A stretch of DNA of 64,000 nucleotides, taken from NCBI GenBank assembly GCA_036378735.1, contig DASUVX010000031.1, positions 9,856 to 73,855 of the forward strand, read 5' to 3'. Source of the DNA: Pseudonocardiaceae bacterium (GTDB lineage: Bacteria > Actinomycetota > Actinomycetes > Mycobacteriales > Pseudonocardiaceae). A program made the position numbers and the translations under genes. How positions within the stretch are numbered: position 1 is the stretch's first letter; the number at the start of each line of letters is the position of its first letter. Shown one piece after another: positions 7,478 to 64,000 of this stretch. The notes below the pieces were generated by a model. That model made no database searches. It had not been told where the DNA came from and saw only the letters and a program-made list of their open reading frames with translations.

Positions 7478-7525
7478 GGCCACCCGCCTCTCCGCATCCG
7501 GCGGACCGGTCGTGAAGCACCCTTA

Positions 7526-7565
7526 TGCTCCACAGAGACCCACAGTACCCCACTTTACGCCACTG
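7526..7565 (-). promoter_or_regulatory. Candidate MraZ operator: four direct (A/T)GTGG repeats with exact 10-bp phasing
   Basis: The minus strand reads AGTGGCGTAA AGTGGGGTAC TGTGGGTCTC TGTGGAGCAT, about 50-90 nt upstream of the mraZ start. It resembles the phased TGGGN direct repeats bound by E. coli MraZ. Confidence 0.55.
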
Positions 7566-7976
7566 TCAACGTACGAGCACCCTCCGTGTTCGTTCATATT
7601 CGGCATCACACCAGTTCAGAGGTGGTGGGAGAGGGTGGGGCGAGCACCGACGCGGGGACACCGTTACACCCTGGGAAGACCTTCGAACGCTCCTGGGGAG
7701 ATCCCCGCCCGCCCAGCCGGACCGGCCGCAATGCCGTCAGCAAGATCGTCAAGATAGGAGGTGGGAGAAAGTGGAGGGCTCGGCCACCGTCGATCCGCCG
7801 GCAACACAGCGATTTGAGCGAACCGCACGCCGGCAGCCGGATGCTCGTCGTTGTTCGGAGGTGGGAACGCCTTCCCCGCCGGGTTGGCGTTGCGCCACGG
7901 TTTGACAGACTCGGCCCGGCGCTGGCGGTTCACCGGTCTCATGCACCAGCGACCCGCGAGACGGTCAGGAGGTGGC

Positions 7977-12637: not shown

Positions 12638-13026
12638 TGCTCTTCGAAGCGGCGACGGAACCGTTGCTCCATCCGCTGAGCCAGCGTGCTACGGCTCTGG
12701 CCGGGAGACGAACGATCCGCCGATCCCGTCCGCCTGCCATCGCTGGACGGGCGGCGAGAAAAGATTGCCACGATGGCACCGGCGAACATCACCAAGAAAC
12801 CGACAACGCTGATAACCGGAACCCCGACCAGACGGTAAGGGAGCACTACACCAGCGATGAGGAGTAGCAAGCCCAGCACAAATAGCGCGATACCCTGAAT
12901 TCGGCGGCGTTGGGGCAGGCTTCGCATCCGGGCGCCCCGGACGTTCGACGCGAACTTGGGGTCCTCTGCATAGAGCGCGCGCTCGATCTGGTCGAGCAGA
13001 CGCTGCTCGTGCTCGGAGAGTGGCAT
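12634..13026 (-). CDS. DUF3040 membrane protein
   Basis: N-terminus MPLSEHEQRLLDQIERALYAEDPKF followed by two TM helices. ATG 13026 is preceded by GGAGGAGG. Confidence 0.8.
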   Translation of the reverse strand: MPLSEHEQRLLDQIERALYAEDPKFASNVRGARMRSLPQRRRIQGIALFVLGLLLLIAGVVLPYRLVGVPVISVVGFLVMFAGAIVAIFSRRPSSDGRRTGSADRSSPGQSRSTLAQRMEQRFRRRFEEH

Positions 13027-13144
13027 GGCTCCTCCTCCGGCACTACCGGTTGTCGACATTGTATCCGACCCCGACGGTACCTGTAGCTACCAGACAGCCA
13101 CCGTGGGCTCTTACCATGAGGATACGAGGCTGCGGCGGTGTCGA

Positions 13145-14470
13145 CTAGCCGATCTCGTTACCCGATTCAGGGGAGAGCTGGGATCGCCCGCCACCGGCGG
13201 GCCCGGGAGTATCCAGCAGCGTCGCCGGCCGTACGGCGGCGCTGCCGAACCGTGACCGAGCAGCATCTGCGGCACGTTCGGCGTCCGACCAGTGCGCGTG
13301 CATTCCCGCGCCGTCTGCGCCATCGAAGGTGAGCTGCTCAGCCACCGCGCCACGGCTCAACTGGTCAATCCGCACGCCCAACAACCGGACCAGCATTCCG
13401 GGGGGTAGGTGTGCGTCCAACAACTCGGCGGCCACTGTGTAGACCGTATGTGTCGAGTCCGTCGGATCGGCCAGTGTGCGCGACCGGCCGATGGTGGTGA
13501 AGTCGGGATGGCGGATCTTCAGCGCAATGGTGCGGCCCCGCAGGCCGCGGCGGCGTAACGCGGCCGTGGCCCGGTCGACCAGCCGCAGCAGCTCGCGCCG
13601 CAAGGCCGTCCGATCAGCTTCGTCGCGGGCGAAGGTCTGCTCTGCTCCCACCGACTTCTCCGGCAGGTTCGGCACTACCCGCCGGTCGTCCCGGCCGTTG
13701 GCGAGCTCGTGCAGGTGATGGGCGCTGGCGGCCCCCACGGCGCGCCGCAACGCGGGCAGCGGCATGCTCGCCACGTCGGCCACCGTAGTGCACCCCAGCC
13801 GGCGCAGCACTTGCGCGGTGCGCTGGCCGACACCCCACAACGCCGACAGGGGCAGCGGGTGCAGGAACTCCAGGACACCGTCGGCGGGCACTACCAGCAG
13901 TCCATCCGGTTTGGACAGCCCGGAGGCGAGCTTGGCGAGGAACTTGCTCGGCGCCACGCCCACCGAGCAGGTCACCCGGTGAGCGTCATAGACCTGCCCG
14001 CGAATCCATTCCCCGATCCTGGCTGGGGTCATGCCCAACCTGCGCACCGACCCGCCGACGTCGAGGAAGGCCTCGTCCAGGCTCAGCGGCTCGACCAGTG
14101 GGGTGATCTCATGGAACAGCGCCATGACGCCCTGCGAAACCTCGGCATAGCGCGGGAAATGCGGCGGCACGAACTCCGCTTGCGGGCACAGCCGGCGGGC
14201 ATGGGCCACCGGCATCGCCGAGCGGACCCCGAACGCGCGAGCCTGGTAACTCGCCGAGAGCACGACGCCGCGATCTCCGGTGGGACTGCCACCCGCTACG
14301 ACCACGGGGCGCCCGGCCAGCTCAGGGTGTTGGCGGATTTCGACGGACGCGTAGAAGGCATCCATGTCGATATGCAGCACAGGGCAGCCGGTGTCGTTCC
14401 GCTGGGCCCGGGTGCGGGTGTCCCGCTGGGCCCGGGTGCCGGACCGCGGCAGATCGGCACTACGTCCCAA
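13145..14470 (-). CDS. dinB: DNA polymerase IV (Y-family)
   Basis: Motif HIDMDAFYASVE plus the Y-family palm and little-finger layout. TTG 14470 sits just after the SD GGAGGGG. GTG 14380 (VLHIDMD) is the alternative start. Confidence 0.88.
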   Translation of the reverse strand: MGRSADLPRSGTRAQRDTRTRAQRNDTGCPVLHIDMDAFYASVEIRQHPELAGRPVVVAGGSPTGDRGVVLSASYQARAFGVRSAMPVAHARRLCPQAEFVPPHFPRYAEVSQGVMALFHEITPLVEPLSLDEAFLDVGGSVRRLGMTPARIGEWIRGQVYDAHRVTCSVGVAPSKFLAKLASGLSKPDGLLVVPADGVLEFLHPLPLSALWGVGQRTAQVLRRLGCTTVADVASMPLPALRRAVGAASAHHLHELANGRDDRRVVPNLPEKSVGAEQTFARDEADRTALRRELLRLVDRATAALRRRGLRGRTIALKIRHPDFTTIGRSRTLADPTDSTHTVYTVAAELLDAHLPPGMLVRLLGVRIDQLSRGAVAEQLTFDGADGAGMHAHWSDAERAADAARSRFGSAAVRPATLLDTPGPAGGGRSQLSPESGNEIG

Positions 14471-37098: not shown

Positions 37099-37165
37099 CG
37101 TTCTCCTCCTCGCGACACGAGCCAGGCGGTGACACCATCGCGTGGGAGTGAGGACGATAGGCCGG

Positions 37166-37208
37166 TCTTCGATCGAAGCTCCCGGAGCACGTCGTGTGCT
37201 CTCGGGAG
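37166..37208 (-). promoter_or_regulatory. pnp leader structures: a 12-nt palindrome plus a 13-bp bulged hairpin
   Basis: CTTCGATCGAAG at 37166-37177. GCTCCCGGAGCAC (37177-37189) pairs with GTGCTC[T]CGGGAGC (37195-37208) around a 5-nt loop, 70-110 nt upstream of the pnp ATG. Confidence 0.5.
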
Positions 37209-37288
37209 CCACTACCGAGGACCGGCGGACGACGATCCCGACGACGGTGACATGGCGGCTCGTGCCGCGACGTGTGGTTGTGTATCAA

Positions 37289-51431: not shown

Positions 51432-52583
51432 CTAACCCTCGATAGTGCGCTCGACGCGGCGCAGGGCCTCGCGCAGGAGAGGCAACGAGGTGCCGTGATT
51501 GAGCCGGATCCGCCCAACTCCCTGGTCGGCGGGCAGCGCGAATTCGTGTCCTGGGCTGACCGCGAGGCGCCCTTGTTCGAGCAACAGCCGGGCTGGGTCG
51601 TCACCGAGCCCGGCATCGCGCAGATCCAACCAGGCCAGGTAACCCGCCATGCCGGGATGCGCCCGTACCCCAGGCGTGCGCCGCACCCAGGCGGCCAGCT
51701 CGGCGCGAGTCCGATCCAGGTGCAGCCGCAGCTCGTCGAGCCAGCCACCATCATCGACCCAGGCGGCGATGCTGGCGGCGACTCCAGGTACCGACGCGCG
51801 CAGCCGCTCGTACCGCGGCACCGCGTCGACGACCCGCGCGGTACCCGGCTGGGCTTGAAGCAGCGCGCACTTCAACCCGGGCACGTTCCAACCCTTGGAG
51901 ATGCTGGTGACGGTCACCGCGTGGGCAGCAGCCGGTGGCGAGCTGGCCGCGTACGGGGTGAACTTGAGGTCGCTGGCCAGCAACGGAGCGTGCACCTCAT
52001 CGGACACCACCTGAGCGCCTCGCGTCTCCACGATCTCCGAAACGGCCGCCAGCTCTTCGCTGCTGAACACCCGGCCGGTCGGATTGTGCGGGTGGCACAG
52101 CAATAACCCGCGCGCGCTGCCACTTAGCGCGTCATCCAGCCGCTGCAGGTCCAATGCCCAGCCCTGCGGCCGGTCCAGCAGCGGCCACGGCACCGCGACG
52201 CGGCCCAGCGCCTGGAGCAGAGCGAAAAACGGTGGGTACGCCGGAGTGAGCAGCACGACGCCGTCGCCCGGCTCGGTCAACACCCGCAGGGACGCTTCGA
52301 TCCCGGCCATCACATCGGCTACCGGGCAGGCCAGCGCGGGATCGGGCCACCAGCCCTGATAGCGCGCCGCCCAGCTGGCGAATGCCTCGGCCAGACCCAC
52401 CGGTTCGGAATAACCCAGGTCGTGTGCATCGAGTGCCCCACGGGCCGCCTCGAATACCGGGCGGGCCAGCGGAAAATCCATCTCCGCAACCCAGGCAGGC
52501 AGCACGTCGGGTGGGTAACGGGACCACTTCATCGTCCGGCGCGCGCGGAGGGCCTCAAGACTGAGCGCATCGAATCCCACCAA
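51432..52583 (-). CDS. PLP-dependent aminotransferase class I/II, MalY/PatB-type C-S lyase
   Basis: RRTMKWSRYP ... LPAWVAEMDF ... CHPHNPTGRVF ... SISKGWNVPGLK (PLP lysine). Confidence 0.8.
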   Translation of the reverse strand: MVGFDALSLEALRARRTMKWSRYPPDVLPAWVAEMDFPLARPVFEAARGALDAHDLGYSEPVGLAEAFASWAARYQGWWPDPALACPVADVMAGIEASLRVLTEPGDGVVLLTPAYPPFFALLQALGRVAVPWPLLDRPQGWALDLQRLDDALSGSARGLLLCHPHNPTGRVFSSEELAAVSEIVETRGAQVVSDEVHAPLLASDLKFTPYAASSPPAAAHAVTVTSISKGWNVPGLKCALLQAQPGTARVVDAVPRYERLRASVPGVAASIAAWVDDGGWLDELRLHLDRTRAELAAWVRRTPGVRAHPGMAGYLAWLDLRDAGLGDDPARLLLEQGRLAVSPGHEFALPADQGVGRIRLNHGTSLPLLREALRRVERTIEG

Positions 52584-52668
52584 AATTATCTACCCATGCT
52601 GAGGCGGTAAGCACCAGTGAGCGGCGGGGAATTCGATCTGGGTACCTCCAGCTTGTTCACAGCGGGCG

Positions 52669-53889
52669 TCAGGCGTTTGAGGGGTTGCGCAGCGCCACGA
52701 CAGGGCCGATCACCACGATGGCGGGCGGGCGGATAACGGCTGCGGCGACGCGGTCGGCCGCTTCGCGCAGCGTGCAGCGCACCACCCGCTGGCCACGCAG
52801 GGTGCCGTCGGCGATGACCGCGACCGGGGTGTCCGGCGGCCTGCCGCAGGTGATCAGCGTCTCGGCGAACACGCCGATTCGCTCCACCGCCATCAGCAGC
52901 ACCAGGGTGCCGCGCAGCCGGCCGAGCGCCGGCCAGTCCACCAGGCAGGTCGGATCGTCTGGCGCCACATGCCCAGACACGACGACGAACTCGTGGGTCA
53001 CCGCGCGGTGCGTCACCGGGATCCCCGCCGCGGCCGGCACGGCGATGGCGCTGGTGATCCCGGGGACCACGGTGACCGGTACCCCGGCGTCCGCGCAGGC
53101 CAGCACTTCCTCGAAGCCGCGCCCGAAGACGTAGGGGTCACCGCCTTTGAGGCGCACCACGAACCGGCCGGCTCGGGCGTGTTCGATCAATTGAGCGTTG
53201 ATCTGCTCCTGGGCCATCGCGCGGCCGTAGGGCACCTTCGCCGCGTCGATCACCGTGACGTGCCCGCCGAGCTCGTCGAGCAGTTCGCGGGGCGCGAGCC
53301 GATCTGCCAGCACCACGTCGGCGCGGGCCAGCAGCCGGCGCCCCCGCACGGTGATCAAATCCGGATCGCCGGGCCCAGCGCCCACCAGCGCCACTCCCGG
53401 CGTCGTGACGTGGTCTTCGGCGTCCGGCGCGTCGTCCACTATCCCGGTGCGCAGAGCGTCGACCAGCGCATCCCGGACGGCGGCGGAACGGCGCGGGCGG
53501 CGCCCGGCCAGCACACCGATGAGCAACCCGTCGTGTTCGCCGGTGGCGGCGGTGACCGCACTACCACCGGTGGCGTCGTCCGCGCGCACGCAGAACACCC
53601 GCCGCCGCTGCGCCTCGGCGGCCACCGCTGCGTTCACCGCGCGATCGGAGCTACATGCCAGCGCATACCAGGCGCCCTCCAGGTCTCCGTCGGCGTAGCC
53701 GCGCACCTCCCAGCGCAGCTCCCCCGCAGTGGCCATCGCCTCCACCGCTGGGGTGGCCTCAGGAGCGACGAGCAGCACGTCTGCGCCGGCCCCGATCAGC
53801 CGCGGTAGCCGCCGCTGCGCAACCGTGCCGGCGCCGACCACCACGACCCGGCGCCCGGTCAGATCCAGCCCGACCAGGTATGGCGTCAC
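52669..53889 (-). CDS. cysG: Siroheme-synthase-like bifunctional protein: precorrin-2 dehydrogenase/ferrochelatase N-domain plus uroporphyrinogen-III C-methyltransferase
   Basis: N-terminal GRRVVVVGAGTVAQRRL and a C-terminal SUMT domain (LVGAGPGDPDLITVRG, RLKGGDPYVFGRG, GIPVTHR). GTG 53889 forms a GTGA overlap with the cobH stop. Confidence 0.85.
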   Translation of the reverse strand: MTPYLVGLDLTGRRVVVVGAGTVAQRRLPRLIGAGADVLLVAPEATPAVEAMATAGELRWEVRGYADGDLEGAWYALACSSDRAVNAAVAAEAQRRRVFCVRADDATGGSAVTAATGEHDGLLIGVLAGRRPRRSAAVRDALVDALRTGIVDDAPDAEDHVTTPGVALVGAGPGDPDLITVRGRRLLARADVVLADRLAPRELLDELGGHVTVIDAAKVPYGRAMAQEQINAQLIEHARAGRFVVRLKGGDPYVFGRGFEEVLACADAGVPVTVVPGITSAIAVPAAAGIPVTHRAVTHEFVVVSGHVAPDDPTCLVDWPALGRLRGTLVLLMAVERIGVFAETLITCGRPPDTPVAVIADGTLRGQRVVRCTLREAADRVAAAVIRPPAIVVIGPVVALRNPSNA

Positions 53890-54476
53890 GGCACCGGCTG
53901 CCGGCACAGCAGCGCATTGACCACCGCGGCAGCGACCGCGGTGCCGCCCTTGGCGCTGCGGTTGGACAGCGCCGGCAGGCCCGACTCCCGCAAAGCCGCC
54001 TTCGCAGCGGCCGCGTCGACGAACCCGACCGGCAGCCCGATCACCAGCACAGGATGGAGCACTCCCTCCGCGGCGAGGCGGATCAGCTCGCGCAGCGCGG
54101 TCGGCGCGTTGCCTACCGCCCACACCGCGTCCTGGGGATGCCGCGCCGCGGCCGCCCGGATTCCCGCCGCGGAGCGCGTCAGTCCGGGCATCGGCGCCGG
54201 CGCCAGGTCCAGCGCGACCACACTTTCGCGCGAAGTGACACCGGCAGCGAGCATCCGGACATCAACCACCAACGGCGCGCCCATAGCCAGCGCCTGCTGC
54301 CCCGCCCGCAGGGCGTCCTCGTCACAGCACAGATCGGTCGCGTAGGCCAGGTCCGCGCTGGCGTGGATCACGCGCTCGGTCACCGCACGGCTGACTCGCG
54401 GTAGCCGCGTGGTGTCCACCTGGGACCGGAGTATCCGGTATGACTCGACCTCGATCGGGTGCGCGGTCCACGCCAT
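53886..54476 (-). CDS. cobH: Precorrin-8X methylmutase (CobH/CbiC)
   Basis: IEVESYRIL ... VIHASADL ... VGNAPTAL ... GLPVGFV. ATG 54476 follows GGAGG. Confidence 0.85.
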   Translation of the reverse strand: MAWTAHPIEVESYRILRSQVDTTRLPRVSRAVTERVIHASADLAYATDLCCDEDALRAGQQALAMGAPLVVDVRMLAAGVTSRESVVALDLAPAPMPGLTRSAAGIRAAAARHPQDAVWAVGNAPTALRELIRLAAEGVLHPVLVIGLPVGFVDAAAAKAALRESGLPALSNRSAKGGTAVAAAVVNALLCRQPVP

Positions 54477-54578
54477 GTCGCCTCCTCTGGTAGTTCTCTG
54501 GCGACGCCTCGGCACCGCGTACAGCTTGCCGTCACAATGGTGCTGCATTGAAGGTGGCGGGCTGAACGGAGACCGTGG

Positions 54579-54821
54579 ATGGATCTCGATGATCACGACG
54601 ACGACCTTGCCACCCAGTATGTGCTGGCCCGGCGCCTGCGTCCGGACCTCGAGGGAGAAGAACTCGCCCGCCTGATCGTCTCTAGACTCGACGAGGATCA
54701 GCTACTGAACCTCGCCGGGGACGCGCTGACATGGGCACAGCACCCGACCGACCGTCAAGAATTGGCGATGCACTACGTAAAGAACTTCGTGCTCGCTATG
54801 GAAAGTGACCCCGACGGGTAA
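54579..54821 (+). CDS. Small acidic hypothetical protein (80 aa)
   Basis: ATG follows GGAGA and the stop is TAA. The third position is mostly G/C but with more A/T-ending codons than the neighbours. No family recognised. Confidence 0.45.
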   Translation: MDLDDHDDDLATQYVLARRLRPDLEGEELARLIVSRLDEDQLLNLAGDALTWAQHPTDRQELAMHYVKNFVLAMESDPDG

Positions 54822-54865
54822 GGAATCTCTCTCGCTCTGCACATTCCGGGTGGCACGATACAGCC

Positions 54866-55510
54866 ATGCAAGCCGGGGGTGATCGATCTGGCAGGCGTCG
54901 GCGACGGCCGACGTTAGTCGCGGTCGGCGCTGTCCTGGTCCTGCTGCCGATCGGCCATCTGGACCCCGAATTCAGCCGGCTCGCGCCCGTGGCCTGGTAC
55001 AGCAGTCCGAAACCGGTCGTCGTGTTCGGCAGCGGCACCCTCACCATGCCGAACCGCACCTCAAAGGCGATCACTTACGACCCCGATCTGGCGCCCATCG
55101 GAGCCGCCATGACGGCCACCATCATCCCGACCTCGGAAGGGTCCACGGCTCAGCTCACGGTGCTCGGGCTGCTGCCTGACCGCGGGTACACGGTGTACGC
55201 CTACGACAAGGCTTGCGGGGCCACTCCTGGCGCGGCCGGCGCGCGTTTCCAGTATCACCTTGATCCTGCGGCGACGTCTGCAGCGCTATCGGCTGACCCC
55301 GAATACGACAACCCGGACAACGAGATCTGGCTCGACGTGCGGACCGACGACGCCGGAACCGGCACCTCGGCCACCACCATTCCCTTCGTCCTCACCGACC
55401 GCGTACCGCGTTCGTTCGTGGTGCACGACGCGATGCACACCCCCAAAGACCCTGCGCACGCAGCGGACACCGGTGCCCGCATCGCCTGCCTCACCCTGTC
55501 TCCGCGGTGA
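54866..55510 (+). CDS. Exported Cu,Zn-superoxide-dismutase-fold protein with degenerate metal ligands
   Basis: Basic N-terminus RRRRRP plus a TM/signal segment. The C-terminal G-x-R-I-A-C-L-T-L and FVVHD resemble SodC signatures, but the H-x-H copper site reads YAY. Confidence 0.6.
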   Translation: MQAGGDRSGRRRRRPTLVAVGAVLVLLPIGHLDPEFSRLAPVAWYSSPKPVVVFGSGTLTMPNRTSKAITYDPDLAPIGAAMTATIIPTSEGSTAQLTVLGLLPDRGYTVYAYDKACGATPGAAGARFQYHLDPAATSAALSADPEYDNPDNEIWLDVRTDDAGTGTSATTIPFVLTDRVPRSFVVHDAMHTPKDPAHAADTGARIACLTLSPR

Positions 55511-55523
55511 ATGGGATGGCCTC

Positions 55524-56348
55524 ATGCCACCGGCCACTGGACTGATCTCGTTCGTGGGTGCCGGACCCGGCGCAGCCGACCTGCTCACCCTCCGCGGCGC
55601 GAACCGGCTCGCCGCTGCGGATCTGGTGATCTGGGCGTCGTCGCTGGTGCCCGCCGAGGTGCTGACCCACTGCCGCGACGGGGTCGAAGTCCACGACTCG
55701 GCGGGCATGACGTTGGAGGACGTTCTGGCGGTGTACGCGGCGCACCCGGACGCCATGATCGTGCGGCTGCATTCGGGAGATGTCTCGCTGTATTCCGCGC
55801 TGACCGAGCAGCTGTCCTGGTGCCGGGAACAGCACCGGGCATTCGAGATAGTCCCGGGGGTCGGCTCGCTGGCCGCCGCTGCGGCCACCGCCGGGGTAGA
55901 GCTCACGGTGCCCGGAGTGGCCCAGAGCACCGTGCTCACCCGGCTCGGTGGGGGCCGGACCGCAACGTCGATGCCGTCCGGCGAGAGTGTCGCCGGCTTC
56001 GCCCGCCATGCGACCACCATGGCCATCTATCTGTCGGCGGCCCGGCCAGACACGTTGCGCCAGGAGCTGCTGGCCGGCTACCCACCGCAGACACCCGCCG
56101 TTGTGGTCGCGAAAGCCAGCTGGCCGGACGAGACCGTGATCACCACGACGGTGGACGGCCTAGCCGAAGCGCTCGGCGGATCGGGGATCCGCACCGCCGC
56201 GCTGGTACTGGTAGGGCCGGCGCTGGCAGGCGCCGGTTCCCGCAGCCGGCTCTACGACCCCAGCTACTCGCACGGATGCCGCCGCCGCTCGGCACCGGGC
56301 AGCACGTCGGGGCGGCCCATCCCGCCGGCAAAGCGCAAGTCCCCGTAG
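55524..56348 (+). CDS. cobM: Precorrin-4 C11-methyltransferase (CobM/CbiF)
   Basis: ISFVGAGPGAADLLTLRG ... RLHSGDVSLYSA ... VPGVGS. The start was set to ATG 55524. Confidence 0.85.
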   Translation: MPPATGLISFVGAGPGAADLLTLRGANRLAAADLVIWASSLVPAEVLTHCRDGVEVHDSAGMTLEDVLAVYAAHPDAMIVRLHSGDVSLYSALTEQLSWCREQHRAFEIVPGVGSLAAAAATAGVELTVPGVAQSTVLTRLGGGRTATSMPSGESVAGFARHATTMAIYLSAARPDTLRQELLAGYPPQTPAVVVAKASWPDETVITTTVDGLAEALGGSGIRTAALVLVGPALAGAGSRSRLYDPSYSHGCRRRSAPGSTSGRPIPPAKRKSP

Positions 56349-56364
56349 TTCGGCCCGGCGCAAG

Positions 56365-57813
56365 TCAACGGCCTTGGCTCAGCGCGCACAGCGCGGACTG
56401 GGCGGCGTTGAACCCGCTCATGCAGTGCACGCCGGCGCCTGGTGGGGTGGCTGCGGAGCAGAGGTAGACGCCGGGGATTCCGGTCCAGTAGGGGTCGAGT
56501 GCGGCCCTGGGTCGCAGCACGAGTTGCCGTGCGCTGTTGAGGCCACCGACAATGTCGCCGCCGATGAGATTGGCGTTGTGGGTAGCCAGTGCGGCCGTCG
56601 ACCGGCTGGTGCGGGCGATCACACGAGCCCGGAAACCCGGCGCGAACCGCTCGATCTGATTGGTTATGGCCTCAGTCGCGTCGCCCGGGTAGGCGTGCGG
56701 AACGTGGGCGTAGGCGTAGACAGGGTGGACGTCGCCGGCCGACCGGCTGGGATCAGCCAAGTACTGCTGCCCCACCAGGACAAACGGCCGCGCCGGCATC
56801 CCACCTCGGTGGGTTGTCCGCTCGGCCGCCGCGACCTGCTCGAAGGTGCCACCGAGATGCACGGTCCCGGCGCGACGGCAGTCCTCGTTTTTCCAGGGCA
56901 CCCCGCCCTGCACCGCGAAATCGACCTTGAACGCGGCCGGGCCGTGCCGCCAGCGCCGGTAGGCGCGGCGCACCTGCGGCGGAAGGAGATCGCCGGCGAC
57001 CTCGAGCACCGTGCCGGGCATGAGGTCCAGCATAACGATCTCCGCTGGTAAGAGTTCCGCCAGCGAGCGCACCCGGACCCCGGTCTCGATCTCGGCGCCG
57101 AGCGTGCGCAGCACGGCCGCCAGCGCGTTCGTGATCGCCTGGGAGCCGCCCTCAGCGACCGGCCAGCCGTAACGATGCCCGACGGAGATGATCATCGTAC
57201 CGATCGAGGGCACCAGTAGCCGGTTGAAAGGATGGAACGCATGCGCGACGTTCCCGCTGTACAGCGCTCGTGCCTGGGCCGTGGTCAGCAACCTGGCAAC
57301 CGATGTGGCCGAAGGCAGCACCCGCAGGGCGAAACGGGCCAACGTCACGGTATGGCGTGGGACATGCATGATCGGCTGGAGAACCTCGACTAGAAGATCG
57401 TCGACTGCGGGTACCAGCGGACCGAACAGGCGCAGCCAGGTGTCACCGTCGGCCCCGAGACCAGCCGCGGTCTGATCGATCGACCGATACAGCGCGGCCG
57501 CCGATCCACAGTCCAGCGGATGTGCGCAGTCGATCTCGGGCCAGAGCCAGGTAAGTCCGAAGCGCTCCAGCCCCAGGCTGCGCAGGAACGGCGAGGCCGC
57601 GCCCATGGGATGAATGCCGGCACACTCGTCGTGCAGCACACCGGGGACGGTGAGCTCACTGCTTTTGGCCCCACCGCCGATCCGGTCGTCGGCCTCCAGA
57701 ACAGTGACCTCGATACCACCCCGCGCCAGCGCCACGGCCGCCGCCAACCCGTTCGGGCCGGCGCCGACCACAACGGCGTTGGTCACCGGCCGGCGCGGTC
57801 CGACGCCGCCCAC
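56365..57813 (-). CDS. FAD/NAD(P)-dependent oxidoreductase, phytoene-desaturase/amine-oxidase-like
   Basis: Dinucleotide fold VVVGAGPNGLAAAVALARGGIEVTVLEA. About 480 aa. The start is uncertain (GTG 57813 or 57786). The N-terminal ~110 codons of the track ORF were dropped. Confidence 0.68.
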   Translation of the reverse strand: MGGVGPRRPVTNAVVVGAGPNGLAAAVALARGGIEVTVLEADDRIGGGAKSSELTVPGVLHDECAGIHPMGAASPFLRSLGLERFGLTWLWPEIDCAHPLDCGSAAALYRSIDQTAAGLGADGDTWLRLFGPLVPAVDDLLVEVLQPIMHVPRHTVTLARFALRVLPSATSVARLLTTAQARALYSGNVAHAFHPFNRLLVPSIGTMIISVGHRYGWPVAEGGSQAITNALAAVLRTLGAEIETGVRVRSLAELLPAEIVMLDLMPGTVLEVAGDLLPPQVRRAYRRWRHGPAAFKVDFAVQGGVPWKNEDCRRAGTVHLGGTFEQVAAAERTTHRGGMPARPFVLVGQQYLADPSRSAGDVHPVYAYAHVPHAYPGDATEAITNQIERFAPGFRARVIARTSRSTAALATHNANLIGGDIVGGLNSARQLVLRPRAALDPYWTGIPGVYLCSAATPPGAGVHCMSGFNAAQSALCALSQGR

Positions 57814-58096
57814 TCCAGCCGGCGATACGGGTGCAGCACGTCGCCTCCATCGGGTAGACCGCCTTTTCCGGCGCGATTGTTCATGGTGAGCGCCTGGAGA
57901 GGCGGCGGACCCGCGACGGCTTTTGTGACGGGTTGGAGTTACCGAAGCACGGCTACACTTTGTGCGCTGGTTGGGCGAGCGCACCATCACGGGTGCGATG
58001 ATCATACCCTTCGCCGGGGAGATGGGCGGGCGTGACGCTGGATCAGGTGCCTTGGATGTACGCGACGCTCCTGGACGCAGCGATCGTGCGGCTACC

Positions 58097-58846
58097 GTGA
58101 CGGGCGCGCTTGCCGTCGTCGGTCTGGGTCCGGGTGGTCCTGCCCATCGCACCCGGGCCGCAGAGGACGCTGTCCGGGACGCCCAGGTTGTGCTCGGATA
58201 CCAGGCTTACCTGGCGGCTTGCACGGATCTCACCGGCCCACACCAGAGCGTGGTGCCCAGTGGCATCGGCGCCGAGCAGCAACGCGTCGACGATGCGGTG
58301 CGTGCCGCGGCTGGCGGCGCCAGAGTGGCGCTGGTGTCCTCCGGTGACGCCGGGATCTACGGGATGGCTTCACTGGCCCTGACCACCGCCGCCGCGCTAC
58401 CGCCGGAGCGGCGTCCTGCAGTGCGCGTGGTACCCGGTATTACCGCGGCAGTCGCGGCTGCGGCGTTGCTAGGCGCTCCGCTAGCCCGCGACTTCGCCTG
58501 CTTGACCCTGTCCGATCTGCTCGCCCCCTGGGAAGCCGTCGAAACGCGACTGCGCGCGGTGGCCGCCGCGGACCTGGTACTGGCGTTGTACAACCCCCGC
58601 TCCCGGGACCGGTCGTGGCAACTGGGCCGGGCATGCGATGTCCTGGCCGAATACCGGCCCGGTCACACCCCGGTCGGGCTGGTCACCAACGCGGGACGGG
58701 ACAGTGAGCAGGTGGAGCTGACCACGCTGGCCACGCTGGACCCAGCCAAGGCCGGGATGCACACGGTCGTGATCGTCGGCGGCGCCACCACCCGCCGGCT
58801 CGGTGACTGGCTGGTGACCGCCCGGTCCCTCGGTGCGCAGCCGTGA
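58097..58846 (+). CDS. cobJ: Precorrin-3B C17-methyltransferase (CobJ/CbiH)
   Basis: VVGLGPGGP ... SSGDAGIYGMAS ... DFACLTLSDLLAPWE ... ALYNPRSRDR. Start at GTG 58097 (alternative ATG 58022). Confidence 0.82.
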   Translation: MTGALAVVGLGPGGPAHRTRAAEDAVRDAQVVLGYQAYLAACTDLTGPHQSVVPSGIGAEQQRVDDAVRAAAGGARVALVSSGDAGIYGMASLALTTAAALPPERRPAVRVVPGITAAVAAAALLGAPLARDFACLTLSDLLAPWEAVETRLRAVAAADLVLALYNPRSRDRSWQLGRACDVLAEYRPGHTPVGLVTNAGRDSEQVELTTLATLDPAKAGMHTVVIVGGATTRRLGDWLVTARSLGAQP

Positions 58847-58865
58847 CCGCCGCGGAGGCGGCATC

Positions 58866-59600
58866 ATGACCGTTTACCTGGTGGGTGCCGGACCCGGCGA
58901 TCCAGAGTTGCTCACCCGCCGCGGTGCGGCGTTACTGGCCGCAGCCGAGCACGTGGTGTACGACCGTCCCTCGATGGCCGAGATTTTGGCACTCGCGCCG
59001 GGCGCCACAAGGCACTGCGTCGGCAAGCAGGGCGCCACCCCGGCACCACCGCAGCACGAGATCAACGCCCTGCTCATCGAGCTCGGCAGGACCGGGGCCT
59101 GCGTGGTGCGGCTGAAATCAGGTGACCCGTTCGTGGTGTCCCGCGGCGGGGAAGAAGCGGTGGCACTGGCCAACGCCGGAGTGGACGTCGACGTGGTGCC
59201 CGGGGTGTCCGCTGCGGTGGCCGCACCGGCCGCGGCTGGCATCCCGGTGATGATCCGCCAGCGCACCCGCACGCTGACCGTGATCGCCGGCAATGACGAC
59301 GTCGAACAGGTGGATTGGGACGCGGTGGCCCGCCTGGGCGGCACGGTGGTGCTGCTCACCGGGCGCGCGGTGCTGCATCACGTGCTCGCCGCGCTACGCG
59401 CGGGTGGGATGGCGCCCGACACTCCGGTCGCCGCGATCAGCGCCGCCACCCGCCCGCAACAGCGCACCGTCCGCGGCACCTTGGCGCAGCCGCCATCGGC
59501 CCGGCTGCCTGCGCCGCTGACCGTGGTGATCGGCGAGGTCGCGGCTCTGGACGTCATCGCTTCGACCGTCGCGGCCGGGGTGAACTATGCGCAGTCCTGA
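58866..59600 (+). CDS. Second SUMT-family tetrapyrrole methyltransferase (CobA-like, divergent)
   Basis: VYLVGAGPGDPELLTRRG ... RLKSGDPFVVSRGGEE ... VPGVSA. The usual GIPxTHR region reads GIPVMIRQR. ATG 58866 follows GGAGG. Confidence 0.72.
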   Translation: MTVYLVGAGPGDPELLTRRGAALLAAAEHVVYDRPSMAEILALAPGATRHCVGKQGATPAPPQHEINALLIELGRTGACVVRLKSGDPFVVSRGGEEAVALANAGVDVDVVPGVSAAVAAPAAAGIPVMIRQRTRTLTVIAGNDDVEQVDWDAVARLGGTVVLLTGRAVLHHVLAALRAGGMAPDTPVAAISAATRPQQRTVRGTLAQPPSARLPAPLTVVIGEVAALDVIASTVAAGVNYAQS

Positions 59601-59618
59601 CAGCCGCTTGGTGGCGTT

Positions 59619-60371
59619 GTGAGTGCGACGCACCAAGGCCTGCTCGTCCCCGCCGACACCCCGGTGCACCGGCTGGCACCACAGTGCAAGGTGGCTGCCA
59701 CCGTGCTGTTCGTGCTGACCGTCGCGTGCACGCCGGCTGGCGCGTACCGGCCCTACCTGTGCGACCTGCTGCTGCTCACCGCGGTCGCCACGCTGGCCCG
59801 GCTGCCACCGTTGACCCTGGCACGCCGGCTGCTGGTGGAAGTGCCGTTCGTACTGTTTGTGCTGGTATTGCCGGTGCTCGACGGGCCACCGCGGCTGACG
59901 GTAGTCGGTATCGCCTTGTCGGTGCCCGGGCTGCACGCTGCGGCAACCATCACGCTCAAGGCGACGTTCGGGCTGCTCGCCACCGGGATCCTGGCCGCCA
60001 CCACGCCACTGCCGGAGATCATCACGGGGCTGGAGCGGTTGCGGGTGCCGCGGGTGTTCACCGCGGTCGCCGCGTTCATGGTGCGTTACCTCGACGTACT
60101 GGCGGCCGAGCTGGCTCGGATGCGTACCGCGGCGCTGTGCCGAGGGGGCGATCCGCGATGGCTCTGGCACATCCGCGACGTGACAGCCGGGCTCGGCGCA
60201 CTCGTCGTGCGCTCCTTCGAGCGAGGCGAGCGGGTGCATCTCGCGATGGCCTCCCGCGGGTACACCGCAACCTTGCCGGCCGCGCTGACCGGGGCTGCGG
60301 CGCCTCGACGTGCGTGGGCCGGTTCGCTGGCCGTGCCTGCGCTGGCCGCGATCGGGCTGGCCCTGGCATGA
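59619..60371 (+). CDS. cbiQ: ECF-transporter transmembrane (T) component CbiQ/EcfT
   Basis: 250 aa, polytopic, PVHRL.P..K ... ARMRTAALCRGG (the Arg-rich coupling-helix region typical of EcfT). Confidence 0.78.
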   Translation: MSATHQGLLVPADTPVHRLAPQCKVAATVLFVLTVACTPAGAYRPYLCDLLLLTAVATLARLPPLTLARRLLVEVPFVLFVLVLPVLDGPPRLTVVGIALSVPGLHAAATITLKATFGLLATGILAATTPLPEIITGLERLRVPRVFTAVAAFMVRYLDVLAAELARMRTAALCRGGDPRWLWHIRDVTAGLGALVVRSFERGERVHLAMASRGYTATLPAALTGAAAPRRAWAGSLAVPALAAIGLALA

Positions 60372-62059
60372 ACCGAGCCATGCTGGTAGTGGGGCACGGC
60401 AGCCGGGACGCAGACGGGGTGGATGAGTTCTGGACGCTGGCGGGCGCGATCCGCGCCGCAGCGGGTGAGCTGCTGACCAGATTCGGTTTCATCGAGCTGG
60501 CCCGGCCCAGCGTCGACGAGGCCATCGACGACCTGGTTGCGCGCGGCGCCACCGAAATCGTCAGCGTGCCGCTGGTGTTGCTGGCCGCCGGGCACTTGAA
60601 AAACGACGGCCCCGCTGCGCTGGCCCGGGCTCGGCAGCGGCATCCGCAGGTGCGCTTCGCCCTGGCTCGCGACCTCGGCATCGAACCGAACGTGCTCGAG
60701 GTCGTCACGGATCGGGTCCGGGACATGACCGGTGACGCGGACCCGGAGAAACTGGGGGTAGCGCTCATCGGTCGAGGTTGTAGCGATCCGGACGCGTGTG
60801 CTGACTTGTGGAAGGTCGGCCGGTTGCTCGCCGATGGCCGGGGGCTGGGCACGGTCGAGCCCGGCTTCGTGTCCGTCGCCACGCCCTCGGTCCCCGAAAC
60901 CCTGGAGCGGCTGCGCCTGCTCGGCGCCGGAACTGCGGTGGTTGCCCCGTTCTTCCTGTTCTCCGGGGTATTGCTGAACCGGATCTACGCCGAGGCCGCC
61001 AGGTGGGCGCAGGACCACCCGGAGGTCGAAGTCCGCGGCGCGGCCCATCTGGGGCCCGACGCGCGGCTGGCCAGGTTGGTGCTCGAGCGATACCGCGAGG
61101 CGCGGGCCGGTGATGTGCGGATGAACTGCGACCTGTGCGCCTACCGGGTGCAGCTCCCCGGCTACGAGTCCAAGGTCGGCACGCCGATCTCGCTGACCCC
61201 GCACGGTGACGGCCCGGCTGCTGGTTCCCGGCGGCCCCGCCGGACCACCCGGGCGCCTACCCCGGCAGTGCCGATCCGGCACGGCCGGTTCGTCGGCTCG
61301 CAGGCCGGCTCGCGTCGCACCGACCATGCCGCGATCGAGATGTGCGACGTCAGCTTCGCCTACCCGGATGGCCGCCAAGCGCTGTCCGGGGTCTCGATGC
61401 GTGTCGAACTCGGTGAGCGGGTCGCGCTGCTCGGCCCGAACGGTGCCGGCAAAACGTCCCTGGTGCTGCAGCTCAATGGAGTTCTCACCCCGTCGGCCGG
61501 GTCGGTGTCTATCGGCGGTGTCCAGGTGGGGCGGCGCACATTGACCGAGGTGCGTAGGCGGGTCGGCGTGGTGTTCCAAGACCCCGATGATCAGCTGTTC
61601 AGCCCCACGGTGGGCCGCGATGTGGCGTTCGGACCGGCACATCTGGGGCTGTCCGGGGACGCGTTGCAGGCTCGAGTCACCGAGGCGCTGTCCTATGTCG
61701 GCTTGTCGGAAGCGGTGGACCGCCCACCACACCGGCTGTCTGTGGGCGAGCGGCGGCGTGCCGCCGTGGCCACGGTGCTGGCCATGCATCCCGAGGTGCT
61801 GGTGCTCGACGAACCCACCGCCAATCTCGATCCGGCGGCCCGGCGGGAGTTCGCCGATCTGATCAAACGCCTGGGTATGACGACCCTGCTGGTCACCCAC
61901 GACCTGCCCTACGCGCTGGAACTGTGCCCGCGCACGCTGGTCATCGACCACGGGCAGATCGTCGCCGATGGGCCCACCCGGGAAGTGCTCGCCGACCCCG
62001 GATTCATGAGCGCCCACCGGCTGGAGCTCCCCGCCGGCTTCAACCCGCTGGGAACCTAA
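60368..62059 (+). CDS. Single ORF fusing a sirohydrochlorin cobaltochelatase (long CbiX with an MxCxxC motif) to an ECF/cobalt ABC ATPase (CbiO)
   Basis: The ATG forms an ATGA overlap with the cbiQ stop. CbiX part: MLVVGHGSRD ... two ferredoxin-like halves ... MNCDLC. An Arg/Pro linker of about 45 aa follows. CbiO part: GPNGAGKTS, LSVGERRR, LVLDEPT. There is no in-frame stop between the two parts. Confidence 0.75.
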   Translation: MNRAMLVVGHGSRDADGVDEFWTLAGAIRAAAGELLTRFGFIELARPSVDEAIDDLVARGATEIVSVPLVLLAAGHLKNDGPAALARARQRHPQVRFALARDLGIEPNVLEVVTDRVRDMTGDADPEKLGVALIGRGCSDPDACADLWKVGRLLADGRGLGTVEPGFVSVATPSVPETLERLRLLGAGTAVVAPFFLFSGVLLNRIYAEAARWAQDHPEVEVRGAAHLGPDARLARLVLERYREARAGDVRMNCDLCAYRVQLPGYESKVGTPISLTPHGDGPAAGSRRPRRTTRAPTPAVPIRHGRFVGSQAGSRRTDHAAIEMCDVSFAYPDGRQALSGVSMRVELGERVALLGPNGAGKTSLVLQLNGVLTPSAGSVSIGGVQVGRRTLTEVRRRVGVVFQDPDDQLFSPTVGRDVAFGPAHLGLSGDALQARVTEALSYVGLSEAVDRPPHRLSVGERRRAAVATVLAMHPEVLVLDEPTANLDPAARREFADLIKRLGMTTLLVTHDLPYALELCPRTLVIDHGQIVADGPTREVLADPGFMSAHRLELPAGFNPLGT

Positions 62060-62088
62060 CGGCGGGTCCGGCAAGCGCCGAATCTCCG

Positions 62089-62943
62089 TCACTTCACCGC
62101 CCACGCGACGATCAGCTCGCATGGCCCCTCGAATCCGTTGGTTGTCTCAAAGCGGGCCAGCTCGCAGTGGATCTCCTGCCAGGTTTGGTCACGCTCGGCG
62201 GGCGTGAGCCCAGCCAGCATCTGGTGCAACGCGCCGAAGGACTCCCGCTCGAACCGGATGCAGTCTGCGACGCGCGGCATCCGCAGTGGAGCGAGCAGTG
62301 CCTGAGCACCGATATCCCGGAACCCGGCCTGGCGCAACGAGTCCTCGATCGCGCCGGGACGGCCCAGGCTGAACGGTCCGGGTTGGCCGGCTGCGGGCGG
62401 CGGCAGCTTGGCGCGCCGGCGAATGATCGACACCGGGATCGAGAAGAACGGGTTGCGCTCGGCGATGGAAAAGACGATGGCAGAAAGCCGGCCGCCGGGC
62501 CGCAGCGCGCGGTACATACCGGCCAGCGCGCGCCCCAGATCGGGGAAGTACATCAGGCCGAGCCGGCAGATCACCGCATCGAATGCGGCGGGCTCGACGT
62601 TCAGCTCCTCTCCATCGACTGTCCTGGTGCGCACGTTGGTCAGCCCGGCGCGGGCGGCTTCGTCGGCGGCGTAGGTCAGGATCGCCGGTGAGATGTCGGT
62701 GGCCAGCACCTGACCGGACGATCCGGCCCGCCGGGCCGCGATCAACGACTGCCCACCGGCACCGGCGGCGACGTCAAGCAGCACGCTGCCGGTGTGCACG
62801 CCGGCGGCGTCGAGCATCAAGGTGGTGGCCTCACCGAGCCAGTCCTCTAGCGTCGGGCCCCAGGTGTGCCAGGCAGCAGCCGCGTTCTCCCACTGGGCGC
62901 GGGTGGTGTCCTTGTACTGGATTGGATCGAAAGTGACGGTCAT
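62089..62943 (-). CDS. Class I SAM-dependent methyltransferase
   Basis: VLLDVAAGAGGQSL motif I and DAVICRLGLMYFPD. 284 aa. Confidence 0.78.
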   Translation of the reverse strand: MTVTFDPIQYKDTTRAQWENAAAAWHTWGPTLEDWLGEATTLMLDAAGVHTGSVLLDVAAGAGGQSLIAARRAGSSGQVLATDISPAILTYAADEAARAGLTNVRTRTVDGEELNVEPAAFDAVICRLGLMYFPDLGRALAGMYRALRPGGRLSAIVFSIAERNPFFSIPVSIIRRRAKLPPPAAGQPGPFSLGRPGAIEDSLRQAGFRDIGAQALLAPLRMPRVADCIRFERESFGALHQMLAGLTPAERDQTWQEIHCELARFETTNGFEGPCELIVAWAVK

Positions 62944-63071
62944 GGCGTACTCCAGCTGATCAGGATTCCGGGCCTTGCTGACCGGTGTGGCGCTAGAATC
63001 GTCTGTACGCCGCCAGAATGCGGCAAGCGATTTCGCTCGATGCCGGCGAGCGAACCAGGCAGACTTCGCAG

Positions 63072-64000
63072 ATGGCCTTCGTGGGCCGTACTAAGGCGTT
63101 GTCCCGCCTGCTCGCCGTGATCGAGGAGGCGTCACGCGGCCATGCGCGGCTCCTGCTGGTCAGCGGAGAGGCCGGGATCGGCAAGACTGCCCTAGTCAGC
63201 GCCGTGACCAGGCACGCCGGGCTGCGGGTGGGCTGGAGCACGTGCGCAGACGCGAAACGCACGCCGGCGTTTTGGCCGTGGACCACCGCGTTGCGTGGGC
63301 TGCTCGGTGCGCTGGACCCGGCCGAGGCACACACTCTGACCCGGGCCGACGCCAACGAGCTGGCCAGGCTGCTGCCGGAACTAATTGCCCGGGAGCCTGC
63401 GGACGACCCGAGCGACGCCGATGTCGCCCGGTTGCGGCTGTTCGACGCGGTCGCCCGCTTCCTGGAACGGCTAGCCCAGCGGCAGGCCACCGTCGTAGTG
63501 CTCGACGATCTGCAGTGGGCCGACGAGTCGTCACTGCAGCTGCTGCGATTCGTCACCCAGCCCTACCGTCCGGTCCCGCTGGTCGTCATCGGTGCGTACC
63601 GGCACGATGAGCTCGCGGGCACCACCCGGTCGCTAGCCGAGCTGGCCGCGCACGGCGAGTCGGTACACCTGTCCGGCCTGAGCCCGCAGGAGGTGCACGA
63701 TCTCGTTGCGGACGCCTTCGGGCCCGCGACGGCGGACCGCTGGGCCGGTGAGATTCACCGGCGCACGGGGGGCCACCCGTTTTTCACCCGCCAACTCGCT
63801 GAGCTGCTCCACGACGCTGCCGAGTCGCCGGGGGTGGTGCCAGCCGCGGTGCGCGACCTGCTTGCCAGGCGGGTACAACGGCTGTCCACCGGCTGCCGGG
63901 CACTCGTGCAGGCCGCCGCGGTAGCCGGAAACGAGCTGCTGCCGGACGTGCTCGGCGAGGTGTGCGGCATCGACCCGGCGGCCGTCGCAACGCTCATCGA
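63072..64000 (+). CDS. LAL-type (large ATP-binding LuxR-family) regulator, N-terminal AAA/STAND ATPase part; continues beyond the window
   Basis: My own translation from ATG 63072: MAFVGRTKALSRLLAVIEEASRGHARLLLVSGEAGIGKTAL ... VVVLDDLQWADESSLQLLRF ... It stays open to the window end and is not in the ORF track because it is incomplete. Confidence 0.75.
   Translation, partial: MAFVGRTKALSRLLAVIEEASRGHARLLLVSGEAGIGKTALVSAVTRHAGLRVGWSTCADAKRTPAFWPWTTALRGLLGALDPAEAHTLTRADANELARLLPELIAREPADDPSDADVARLRLFDAVARFLERLAQRQATVVVLDDLQWADESSLQLLRFVTQPYRPVPLVVIGAYRHDELAGTTRSLAELAAHGESVHLSGLSPQEVHDLVADAFGPATADRWAGEIHRRTGGHPFFTRQLAELLHDAAESPGVVPAAVRDLLARRVQRLSTGCRALVQAAAVAGNELLPDVLGEVCGIDPAAVATLI

Follow-up and report, generated by a model that had tools for sequence, protein, structure and literature searches.

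An in-frame CbiX–CbiO fusion beside cbiQ in a cobalamin gene cluster of a Pseudonocardiaceae bacterium

The fusion gene and its domains

We describe a gene in which a class II chelatase of the CbiX/SirB type is joined in frame to CbiO, the ATPase of cobalt importers of the energy-coupling factor (ECF) family. It lies on the forward strand of a 64,000-nucleotide stretch of contig DASUVX010000031.1 (assembly GCA_036378735.1, Pseudonocardiaceae bacterium), called the window below, with a GC content of about 69%. The open reading frame (ORF) runs from the ATG at 60368 to the TGA at 62059, that is, over 563 codons, and encodes 563 amino acids (aa) with a mass of 60.0 kDa. Its start codon overlaps the stop codon of the upstream cbiQ by four nucleotides (ATGA). 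From the N to the C terminus the protein comprises a two-lobed chelatase, a module with an MxCxxC motif, a disordered linker of basic character and, last, the whole CbiO ATPase:

60368..62059, + strand: cbiX::cbiO fusion gene (Pfam, NCBIfam; architecture recurring in at least 120 protein clusters and in loci L001-L017 and L085-L087)
60368..61111, + strand: class II (CbiX/SirB-type) chelatase domain, aa 1-248, two alpha/beta lobes (two Pfam CbiX matches, SirB match)
61112..61216, + strand: conserved C-terminal module of long CbiX, aa 249-283, RMNCDLCAYRVQLPGYESKVGTPISLTPHGDGP (near-invariant columns 250-281; MxCxxC at 61121-61138)
61217..61327, + strand: basic disordered linker, aa 284-320 (alignment, model confidence, composition)
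61328..62056, + strand: CbiO ECF-type ABC ATPase domain, aa 321-563 (TIGR01166, match to PDB 5x3x)

In the Pfam search, CbiX matches both the N lobe and the C lobe (E 5.9e-46), and ABC_tran covers aa 339-485 (E 5.4e-30). Together with the NCBIfam assignments and the uninterrupted frame, these matches bear out the first-pass annotation, which had proposed a CbiX–CbiO fusion adjoining cbiQ. The junction peptide of the fusion protein is TDHAAIEMCDVSFAYPDGR, and no PDB chain found by Foldseek spans both halves.

The chelatase domain matches B. subtilis SirB (6jv6/5zt7) with E 1.4e-35 (phmmer, PDB). Its AlphaFold2 model superposes on 5zt7 with a template modelling score of 0.84 and a root-mean-square deviation of 2.5 Å (Foldseek), and the predicted local distance difference test (pLDDT) is mostly 70-97, which gives a confident CbiX/SirB fold. 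Three residues of the N lobe, His10 (60395-60397), Glu43 (60494-60496) and His76 (60593-60595), are invariant across 41 aligned homologues, while the C-lobe positions that match His10 and His76 are not His in the fusion protein. The catalytic His pair of B. megaterium CbiXL, His14 and His79, is likewise in the N lobe (PMC7689651). With a SirB-like model and an invariant His10, Glu43 and His76, the domain looks catalytically competent.

The chelatase part is, to judge by its MxCxxC motif, of the long (CbiXL-like) type. The motif, MNCDLC at aa 252-257, is invariant among the 41 homologues and constitutes a putative Fe-S site; in B. megaterium CbiXL it houses a 4Fe-4S centre, and the C-terminal extension that carries this centre and a His-rich tail has been proposed to act in metal storage or delivery (PMC7689651). 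The free-standing actinobacterial CbiXL-like proteins P0234, P0255 and P0194 (about 55% identical) have an MNCDxC..YRVxLPGYE-type part in common with the fusion and end in a His-rich tail after MNCDxC...PGYE. The fusion lacks this tail and has the linker and CbiO in that place.

What had been described as one Arg/Pro-rich linker of about 45 residues is more accurately two elements. A basic linker does exist, but it is preceded by the almost invariant module of aa 249-283, and the variable part is confined to aa 284-320. This linker has an isoelectric point of 12, with 9 Arg and 4 Pro among its 37 residues, and a pLDDT of about 25; AlphaFold2 predicts disorder for aa 249-317. Within it, a semi-conserved RRGRF(x)GS motif is accompanied by a stretch whose length varies. 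The Acidimicrobiales linker is of another sequence (…RGWRARRAANQ…RPRRGLGR…), likewise basic.

For the CbiO part, inspection of the motifs gave the following positions:

61433-61456, + strand: Walker A, GPNGAGKT, aa 356-363
61574-61594, + strand: Q-loop, FQDPDDQ
61736-61759, + strand: signature, LSVGERRR, aa 457-464
61796-61816, + strand: Walker B, VLVLDEP, aa 477-483
61895-61903, + strand: H-switch, THD, aa 510-512

The residues of these motifs are nearly all invariant across the 41 homologues. Both the long-form CbiX with its MxCxxC motif and the complete ABC ATPase are thus found where the first reading had placed them. The score against NCBIfam TIGR01166 (cbiO), 213.3 bits, passes the cut-off of 211.8 narrowly. 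The closest PDB chains (5x3x, 5x40 and 3gfo) are all CbiO, with 5x3x at E 6e-56 and 5x3x_A as the top Foldseek match, and the identity to free-standing CbiO in cbiM-cbiQ-cbiO operons of Streptomyces and Nocardioides is 60-66%. The motifs, the family score and the adjoining CbiQ all assign the C-terminal domain to the ECF-transporter ATPases CbiO, with a predicted role in Co2+ transport.

Integrity and distribution of the fused frame

It is important to point out that a lone open frame in DNA of about 70% GC proves little, and independent evidence was therefore sought. Contigs spanning 60300-62100 are present in four soil-metagenome runs from separate studies; one of them is identical to the window, the other three differ by substitutions only, and none has an indel. 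Near-identical DNA is present in runs from 11 studies. At the protein level, at least 120 clusters (clustering at 90% identity; the number counts the best matches listed and is a lower bound) show 79-100% identity and lengths of 508-585 aa, all with PF01903 and PF00005, and the clusters with a source name come mostly from metagenome-assembled genomes (MAGs) labelled Pseudonocardiaceae or Pseudonocardiales. A tblastn search of species-representative genomes, which is independent of gene calls, returned full-length contiguous matches in about nine Pseudonocardiaceae-type MAGs (83-91%), in four MAGs of Acidimicrobiales (about 51%) and in a single MAG of Solirubrobacteraceae (66%). The MAG GCA_035606945.1 is an example of a carrier of the fusion. 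In cultured Streptomyces, Nocardioides and others the match is restricted to residues ~321-560 (56-66%). The fusion architecture is therefore found in MAGs of three actinobacterial classes. A check of the region 61100-61340 for a frameshift or a missed stop codon had been advised, and the four independent read sets without indels, the clusters and the tblastn matches in MAGs together argue that the joined frame is not a sequencing artefact.

The open frame is kept in 18 independently assembled loci despite several indels in the linker, and in the alignment of 11 loci all of these indels are multiples of three. The ratio of nonsynonymous to synonymous substitution rates (dN/dS, by the Nei-Gojobori method) was calculated for each segment:

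CbiX domain, residues 1-250: dN/dS 0.18
Cys module, residues 251-283: dN/dS 0.04
linker, residues 284-320: dN/dS 0.34
CbiO domain, residues 321-563: dN/dS 0.10

Every segment of the fusion is under purifying selection (dN/dS <1), and the module of aa 249-283 is the most constrained part of the protein.

A separate CbiO could in principle be produced from an internal start, for which an ATG at about 61340 had been suggested. This candidate does not hold among the loci compared. At the CbiO N-terminus, the window and L001 alone have an ATG in frame. Six loci have GTG, and in another six the codon is ATC, GTT or GTC, which makes a separate start from that position impossible there; nor is there any motif resembling a Shine-Dalgarno sequence within 30 nt upstream of this codon. 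We conclude that the gene is in all likelihood translated as a single polypeptide.

There remains the question of whether an assembly error or a frameshift has joined two genes, or whether the cbiQ-cbiXO unit is a pseudogene that was left behind after the loss of cbiM. Long open frames come easily at high GC, cbiM has been deleted in the window's lineage (see below), and frameshifted versions do occur in some long-read MAGs. However, the short-read assemblies of several independent studies agree without a single indel, the ABC motifs are all invariant, an intact, relocated cbiM is present in a related assembly, and dN/dS in the loci without cbiM, 0.09-0.18 in CbiX and 0.10-0.12 in CbiO, is no different from the overall values. 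Artefact or decay is accordingly hardly credible. As to the frameshifted versions, the gene call P0254 (870 aa) runs cbiQ, cbiX and cbiO together across shifted frames, and the others, at the ends of L015 (about 11600-12505) and L017 (10001-10174), are a read-through beyond the CbiO stop codon and a shifted CbiX N-terminus; these are probably indels of the assemblies rather than biology.

Among clusters formed at 50% identity from 1.84 billion proteins, the fusions in the top matches are P0121 (full-length), P0122 (a fragment) and the frameshifted call P0254. The other top proteins with two matches have them within the CbiO part only and look like proteins with two ATPase domains, and the rest are single-domain. 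The architecture thus appears to be rare in sequence space, yet abundant in soil Pseudonocardiaceae-like lineages, and independent, very divergent CbiX-ABC fusions elsewhere are possible. A neighbour-joining tree of the CbiO domains, built with no outgroup, has three clusters, namely the fused Acidimicrobiales, the fused Pseudonocardiaceae with Solirubrobacteraceae, and the free-standing proteins. It is compatible with one origin or two.

The cobalamin cluster and the deletion of cbiM

We now turn our attention to the membrane components of the transporter. The gene directly upstream of the fusion and the scar that precedes it are:

59619..60371, + strand: cbiQ, T (transmembrane coupling) component, 250 aa (Pfam CbiQ E 1.3e-30; TIGR02454 132.7 bits vs 111.8)
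59580..59621, + strand: cbiM deletion scar (DNA alignment with cbiM-containing loci)

CbiQ has five hydrophobic segments and the xRG coupling motifs CRG 174 and SRG 212. According to the first-pass annotation, cbiM and cbiN are missing from their expected position. There is indeed no cbiM or cbiN in the 64-kb window by tblastn with Streptomyces CbiM-PDGLE and by a check of the ORFs with several transmembrane segments; the latter, considered as hidden cbiM or cbiN, turned out to be TgpA-like, CDP-alcohol phosphatidyltransferase and FtsK. Neither cbiN nor PDGLE occurs in any of the fusion loci examined, and the Pfam context of P0121 is likewise without CbiN. The CbiM matches in the fusion loci end at about residue 209 of Streptomyces CbiM-PDGLE, with cbiQ 15-70 nt further, whereas in Streptomyces-type operons CbiM is fused to the PDGLE region.

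For cbiM itself, however, the absence does not extend to the sister operons. The order cobA-cbiM-cbiQ-cbiX::cbiO is found in L007, L008, L009 and L012 (Pseudonocardiaceae) and in L013, L015 and L017 (Acidimicrobiales). The contig of P0121 has cbiM-cbiQ-cbiX::cbiO followed by cbtB-cbtA, and in the Solirubrobacteraceae MAG (L011) cbiM lies 1.5 kb downstream, in the order cbiQ-cbiXO-cbiH-cobA-cbiM-cbiF-cbiD. In L009 the order is modified by an insert at 7167-9746, between cbiQ and the fusion gene, which holds a gene for a PCMT-like methyltransferase (- strand) and one for an XRE-type helix-turn-helix regulator. In the window, L001/L016, L004, L005, L006, L010, L085, L086 and L087, cobA abuts cbiQ with no cbiM between them.

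DNA alignment with L007, L008, L009 and L012 shows that about 620 bp, the body of cbiM, is missing in the window, L001, L004, L010 and L086. On the 5' side the scar retains the first ~15-20 nt of cbiM (GTGCACATxCCTGAC, that is V-H-I-P-D), which are degenerate in the window and now form the 3' end and stop codon of cobA; on the 3' side it retains the last ~12 nt (..GGTGGCG..GTGA), overlapping the cbiQ start. In L010 (about 4620-4670) the remnant of the cbiM start, GTGCCCATCCCTGAC, stands as three tandem copies at the scar. By these alignments, the absence of cbiM is a secondary, lineage-specific deletion and not a feature of the system.

The suggestion to look for cbiM elsewhere proved fruitful in a related assembly. 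In ERZ25039475, presumably one MAG, the cob locus without cbiM is on contig_14185 (L086) and an intact cbiM is on contig_3240, which means that at least there cbiM has left the operon and is expressed from another locus. The orphan CbiM (VHVPDGF…) is 87% identical to the operonic CbiM of L012. Its gene (L084, 6001-6651) stands behind an adenosylcobalamin (AdoCbl) riboswitch (5790-5880, + strand), and a divergent cbtB-cbtA pair stands behind a second one (4793-4890, - strand). After the orphan cbiM, L084 encodes at 6783-6959 a Cys-rich protein of 58 aa with a likeness to the metallothionein MymT; its score of 71.6 bits stays under the cut-off of 80. In the window, no AdoCbl/B12 riboswitch was found at the gathering score, nor any at E<=1 within 52000-64000. 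In the window's lineage too, the probable source of CbiM is a gene elsewhere in the genome with an AdoCbl riboswitch of its own.

The other cobalamin genes of the window are:

58833..59600, + strand: cobA (uroporphyrinogen-III C-methyltransferase), directly upstream of cbiQ (TIGR01469 224.9 bits vs 185)
57962..58846, + strand: cbiH/cobJ (C17 methyltransferase), longest ORF, true start probably 58022 or 58097 (TIGR01466 272.1 bits vs 246.35)
55524..56348, + strand: cbiF/cobM (C11 methyltransferase) (TIGR01465 267.7 bits vs 259.65)
53886..54476, - strand: cbiC/cobH (precorrin-8X methylmutase) (Pfam CbiC E 1.6e-52)
52669..53901, - strand: cysG-like gene, N-terminal NAD-binding domain and uroporphyrinogen-III methyltransferase domain (Pfam NAD_binding_7 and TP_methylase)

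The cysG-like protein scores 59.3 bits against TIGR01470, just under the cut-off of 62.3, and 266 bits against TIGR01469. Its dehydrogenase domain, of the precorrin-2 dehydrogenase/siroheme synthase type, could plausibly be the source of sirohydrochlorin, the substrate of CbiX. In relatives, CbiD, CbiET, CbiL, CbiA, CobO and a CobE-ferredoxin are encoded alongside. The comparison of these loci shows the fusion to be part of a predicted CbiM/CbiQ/CbiO cobalt system embedded in cob genes.

Some further features of the neighbourhood can be mentioned. The string cbiF-cbiH-cobA-cbiQ-cbiXO begins with a gene at 54866-55510 (+ strand) for a protein of 214 aa that has a single hydrophobic segment, at its N-terminal end, and the C-terminal sequence ...GARIACLTL. 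It has no Pfam or NCBIfam match, its homologue in L087 has a weak Sod_Cu match, and it may be an extracytoplasmic metal-binding protein. The gene is conserved in the cob loci L001, L004, L007 and L012 and absent from L008-L010; as a substitute for the substrate-capture component it was rejected, since its occurrence is not correlated with the absence of cbiM, L010 being without both. Between this gene and cbiC there is an acidic 80-aa ORF (54579-54821, + strand) with no family match, and L001, L085 and L087 have a called gene of 81 aa in the corresponding place. A gene for an FAD/NAD-binding oxidoreductase (56365-58152, - strand) lies between cbiF and cbiH in the window only, the two being adjacent in L001, L004, L007, L008, L010 and L012. 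The 3' flank of the fusion locus varies: the window has genes there for a methyltransferase and a STAND/AAA_16 ATPase, L001 has fragments of these two, and L086 has the cobE-cobL-cbiD cluster; in L085, on a 1.3-Mb contig, several DDE transposase genes (7850-13671) stand directly downstream. The first 52 kb of the window hold housekeeping genes, including ftsK, ribF, truB, rbfA, infB, nusA and proS, and an Actino-pnp RNA motif (37161-37226, - strand, 68.4 bits) upstream of the polynucleotide phosphorylase region.

Proposed function and relation to known systems

The interpretation that we favour, and to which we would give an even chance, is that the chelatase is tethered to the ECF cobalt importer and captures incoming Co2+ for sirohydrochlorin. 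A class II chelatase of the CbiXL type precedes CbiO in one polypeptide, and the tether between them, some 40-70 residues long, is flexible and strongly basic. As in the solved structure of CbiMQO (5X3X), a CbiO dimer would sit beneath CbiQ, which would place two chelatase domains per transporter at the cytoplasmic face. Co2+ released by the S component CbiM would be taken by the tethered chelatase at His10/Glu43/His76, or first at the Cys/His module beside the linker, and put into sirohydrochlorin. The capture would precede equilibration with the cytosolic buffer and the pick-up of Fe2+, Ni2+ or Zn2+ by a promiscuous chelatase. The linker and CbiO occupy the place of the His-rich 'metal storage/delivery' tail of the free-standing CbiXL homologues, and the absence of this tail fits a shift from metal storage to direct supply. 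In the original arrangement cbiM stood just upstream (cobA-cbiM-cbiQ-cbiX::cbiO), and the window's lineage has lost it from the operon. We infer the architecture of the CbiO dimer, the hand-off of Co2+, the inserted metal and the identity of the substrate; direct metal channelling into sirohydrochlorin would be plausible.

Several observations weigh against this interpretation. The chelatase domain reaches no NCBIfam equivalog, and its nearest relative in both sequence and fold is the ferrochelatase SirB. The AlphaFold2 model shows no defined contact between the CbiX and CbiO domains, the window itself is without cbiM, and L009 has two unrelated genes between cbiQ and the fusion gene. The main caveat comes from class I chelatase genes in some of the clusters. 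Locus L011 of the Solirubrobacteraceae MAG encodes at 497-4321, about 5 kb from the fusion, a CobN of 1274 aa (PF02514, 1308 bits), the class I cobaltochelatase subunit of late insertion, and a ChlI/ChlD-like protein is encoded in the Pseudonocardiaceae clusters, so that CbiX may not be the cobalt inserter of the pathway. The signals for cobalt insertion are mixed altogether, with CbiX, CbiD, CbiG_C and NAD_binding_7 on one side of the distinction between early and late insertion, and the ChlID-like protein and (in L011) CobN on the other.

We have also considered three other explanations, which we rank below the tethered chelatase. The fusion might serve stoichiometry only, in the manner of a 'Rosetta stone' protein, guaranteeing co-expression while the Co2+ still comes from the buffered cytosolic pool with no kinetic channelling. 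This would agree with a long, disordered linker of variable length, with the lack of a predicted interdomain contact and with the model for CbiK, which is thought to acquire Co2+ thermodynamically from the buffered pool (PMC7689651). In some operons, moreover, cbiX and cbiO are already neighbours, as in cbiM-cbiQ-cbiO-cbiX of Geobacter, and a fusion could arise there by the loss of a stop codon. A benefit of co-expression alone nevertheless seems unlikely, because the frame is retained across lineages 50% diverged in sequence, the segment on the junction side is the most constrained one (dN/dS 0.04), the His-rich metal tail of the free-standing forms is specifically absent, and the linker retains its basic character and the RRGRF motif.

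A different role for CbiX would be that of a Co2+ acceptor, chaperone or sensor, which either hands the metal to a CobN-type chelatase as CobW does, or gates the CbiO ATPase by its occupancy with metal or tetrapyrrole and so ties import to demand. Regulatory domains are well known on the ATPases of ABC importers, such as MetN and ModC, and such a role would be in line with the CobN in the cluster of L011, with the ChlID-like gene in the Pseudonocardiaceae clusters and with the fact that no cobW was seen in any locus examined. On the other hand, both lobes and the full metal triad of a catalytic chelatase are conserved, and a class II chelatase that passes its metal on to CobN is without precedent to our knowledge. 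CbiD and CbiG_C genes are present in the loci of both Acidimicrobiales and Pseudonocardiaceae, the latter loci also encode a domain of the precorrin-2 dehydrogenase type, and outside L011 there is no cobN within 10 kb in any locus; we therefore regard an acceptor or sensor as distinctly improbable. Finally, CbiX could be a siroheme ferrochelatase of the SirB type, whose fusion to CbiO would have no meaning for cobalt delivery. The closest solved structures are those of B. subtilis SirB and the cluster has a cysG-like gene of the siroheme synthase type; in addition, class II chelatases have no metal specificity, and their metal is not assignable from sequence (PMC7689651). Yet the gene is always within cob clusters, fused to the ATPase of a cobalt transporter beside cbiQ and cbiM, the relocated cbiM is controlled by a B12 riboswitch, and the MxCxxC module is that of the cobaltochelatase CbiXL, which makes a ferrochelatase very improbable.

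A more elaborate form of the tethered chelatase is an importer–chelatase metabolon, in which the CbiO dimer would pair the two MxCxxC/His modules, and these would form an Fe-S or Co2+ bridge directly below the CbiQ/CbiM exit. From the transporter, Co2+ would then reach the chelatase and finally sirohydrochlorin by exchange of ligands, bypassing the cytosolic buffer, and the ATPase may be gated by the substrate or metal occupancy of the chelatase, which would restrict cobalt import to times of demand. We consider this possible but doubtful, and the bridging cluster formed from two MxCxxC motifs is speculation. If true, metal channelling hard-wired between a membrane importer and a tetrapyrrole chelatase would be seen here for the first time.

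A central question of metal cell biology is how each site comes to receive its proper metal. In the current view, class II B12 chelatases, which can also insert Fe, Ni or Co, take Co2+ thermodynamically from a buffered cytosolic pool, and no dedicated supply protein is known (PMC7689651). A tether between a chelatase and an importer motor that is kept in three actinobacterial classes would be genomic evidence that a direct kinetic hand-off can be selected. Fused and split versions would offer a simple test system for such a hand-off, and the device could be of use in engineering cobalt-efficient B12 production. With a lineage this widespread in soils, it may also matter for the environmental supply of B12.

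The fusion had been thought to be undescribed. We found no published description in the full-text literature (subscription-only work, such as the 2003 comparative genomics of B12, lies outside this search), and a review from 2021 on how cobalt is handled in B12 synthesis discusses the importers apart from the class II chelatases. However, the fusion is common in a few uncultured actinobacterial lineages and already annotated there, under generic and inconsistent pipeline names such as 'CbiX/SirB N-terminal domain-containing protein' and 'cobalt transport protein ATP-binding subunit'. The parts, CbiQ, CbiO and a CbiXL-like chelatase, are ordinary and their combination is not; the fusion has apparently been unrecognised rather than unseen.

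Among known systems, the closest is the CbiMNQO/CbiMQO importer (Salmonella; R. capsulatus, 5X3X), with CbiQ as T component, a matching CbiO, CbiM as S component in the sister loci and a setting within cob clusters. The fusion differs in that its CbiO has an N-terminal extension of 320 residues with a complete chelatase, that no CbiN or PDGLE accompanies it in the fusion loci examined, and that cbiM is deleted from the operon in the window's lineage. The same-operon CbiM of group I CbiMNQO systems is accordingly lacking in the window and present in L007, L008, L009, L012, L013, L015, L017 and the P0121 contig. The separation of cbiQ and cbiX::cbiO from a riboswitch-bearing cbiM recalls the group II ECF transporters, which have a shared EcfAA'T module and scattered S genes. 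Unlike these, the fusion system derives from a dedicated group I cobalt operon by recent deletion or relocation, and there is no indication of a module serving several S components. It represents a group I ECF transporter moving toward a split, group II-like gene organisation.

On the side of the chelatase, the fusion has the two-lobed class II architecture of B. (Priestia) megaterium CbiXL, with the catalytic His pair in the N lobe and a C-terminal MxCxxC, but a basic linker and CbiO take the place of its His-rich tail. B. subtilis SirB (5ZT7, 6JV6), the closest solved structure, has the same residues at the positions of His10, Glu43 and His76. It is, however, a free-standing protein of about 260 aa in siroheme synthesis, without the MxCxxC module, and the genomic context and the fusion partner are different. 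The likeness to CobW with CobNST lies in the task, as there too a chelatase has to be provided with scarce Co2+ in competition with the cytosolic buffer (PMC7689651). CobW, a soluble G3E GTPase, takes its Co2+ from this buffer and is not homologous to the fusion protein, in which the chelatase is attached covalently to the motor of the importer.

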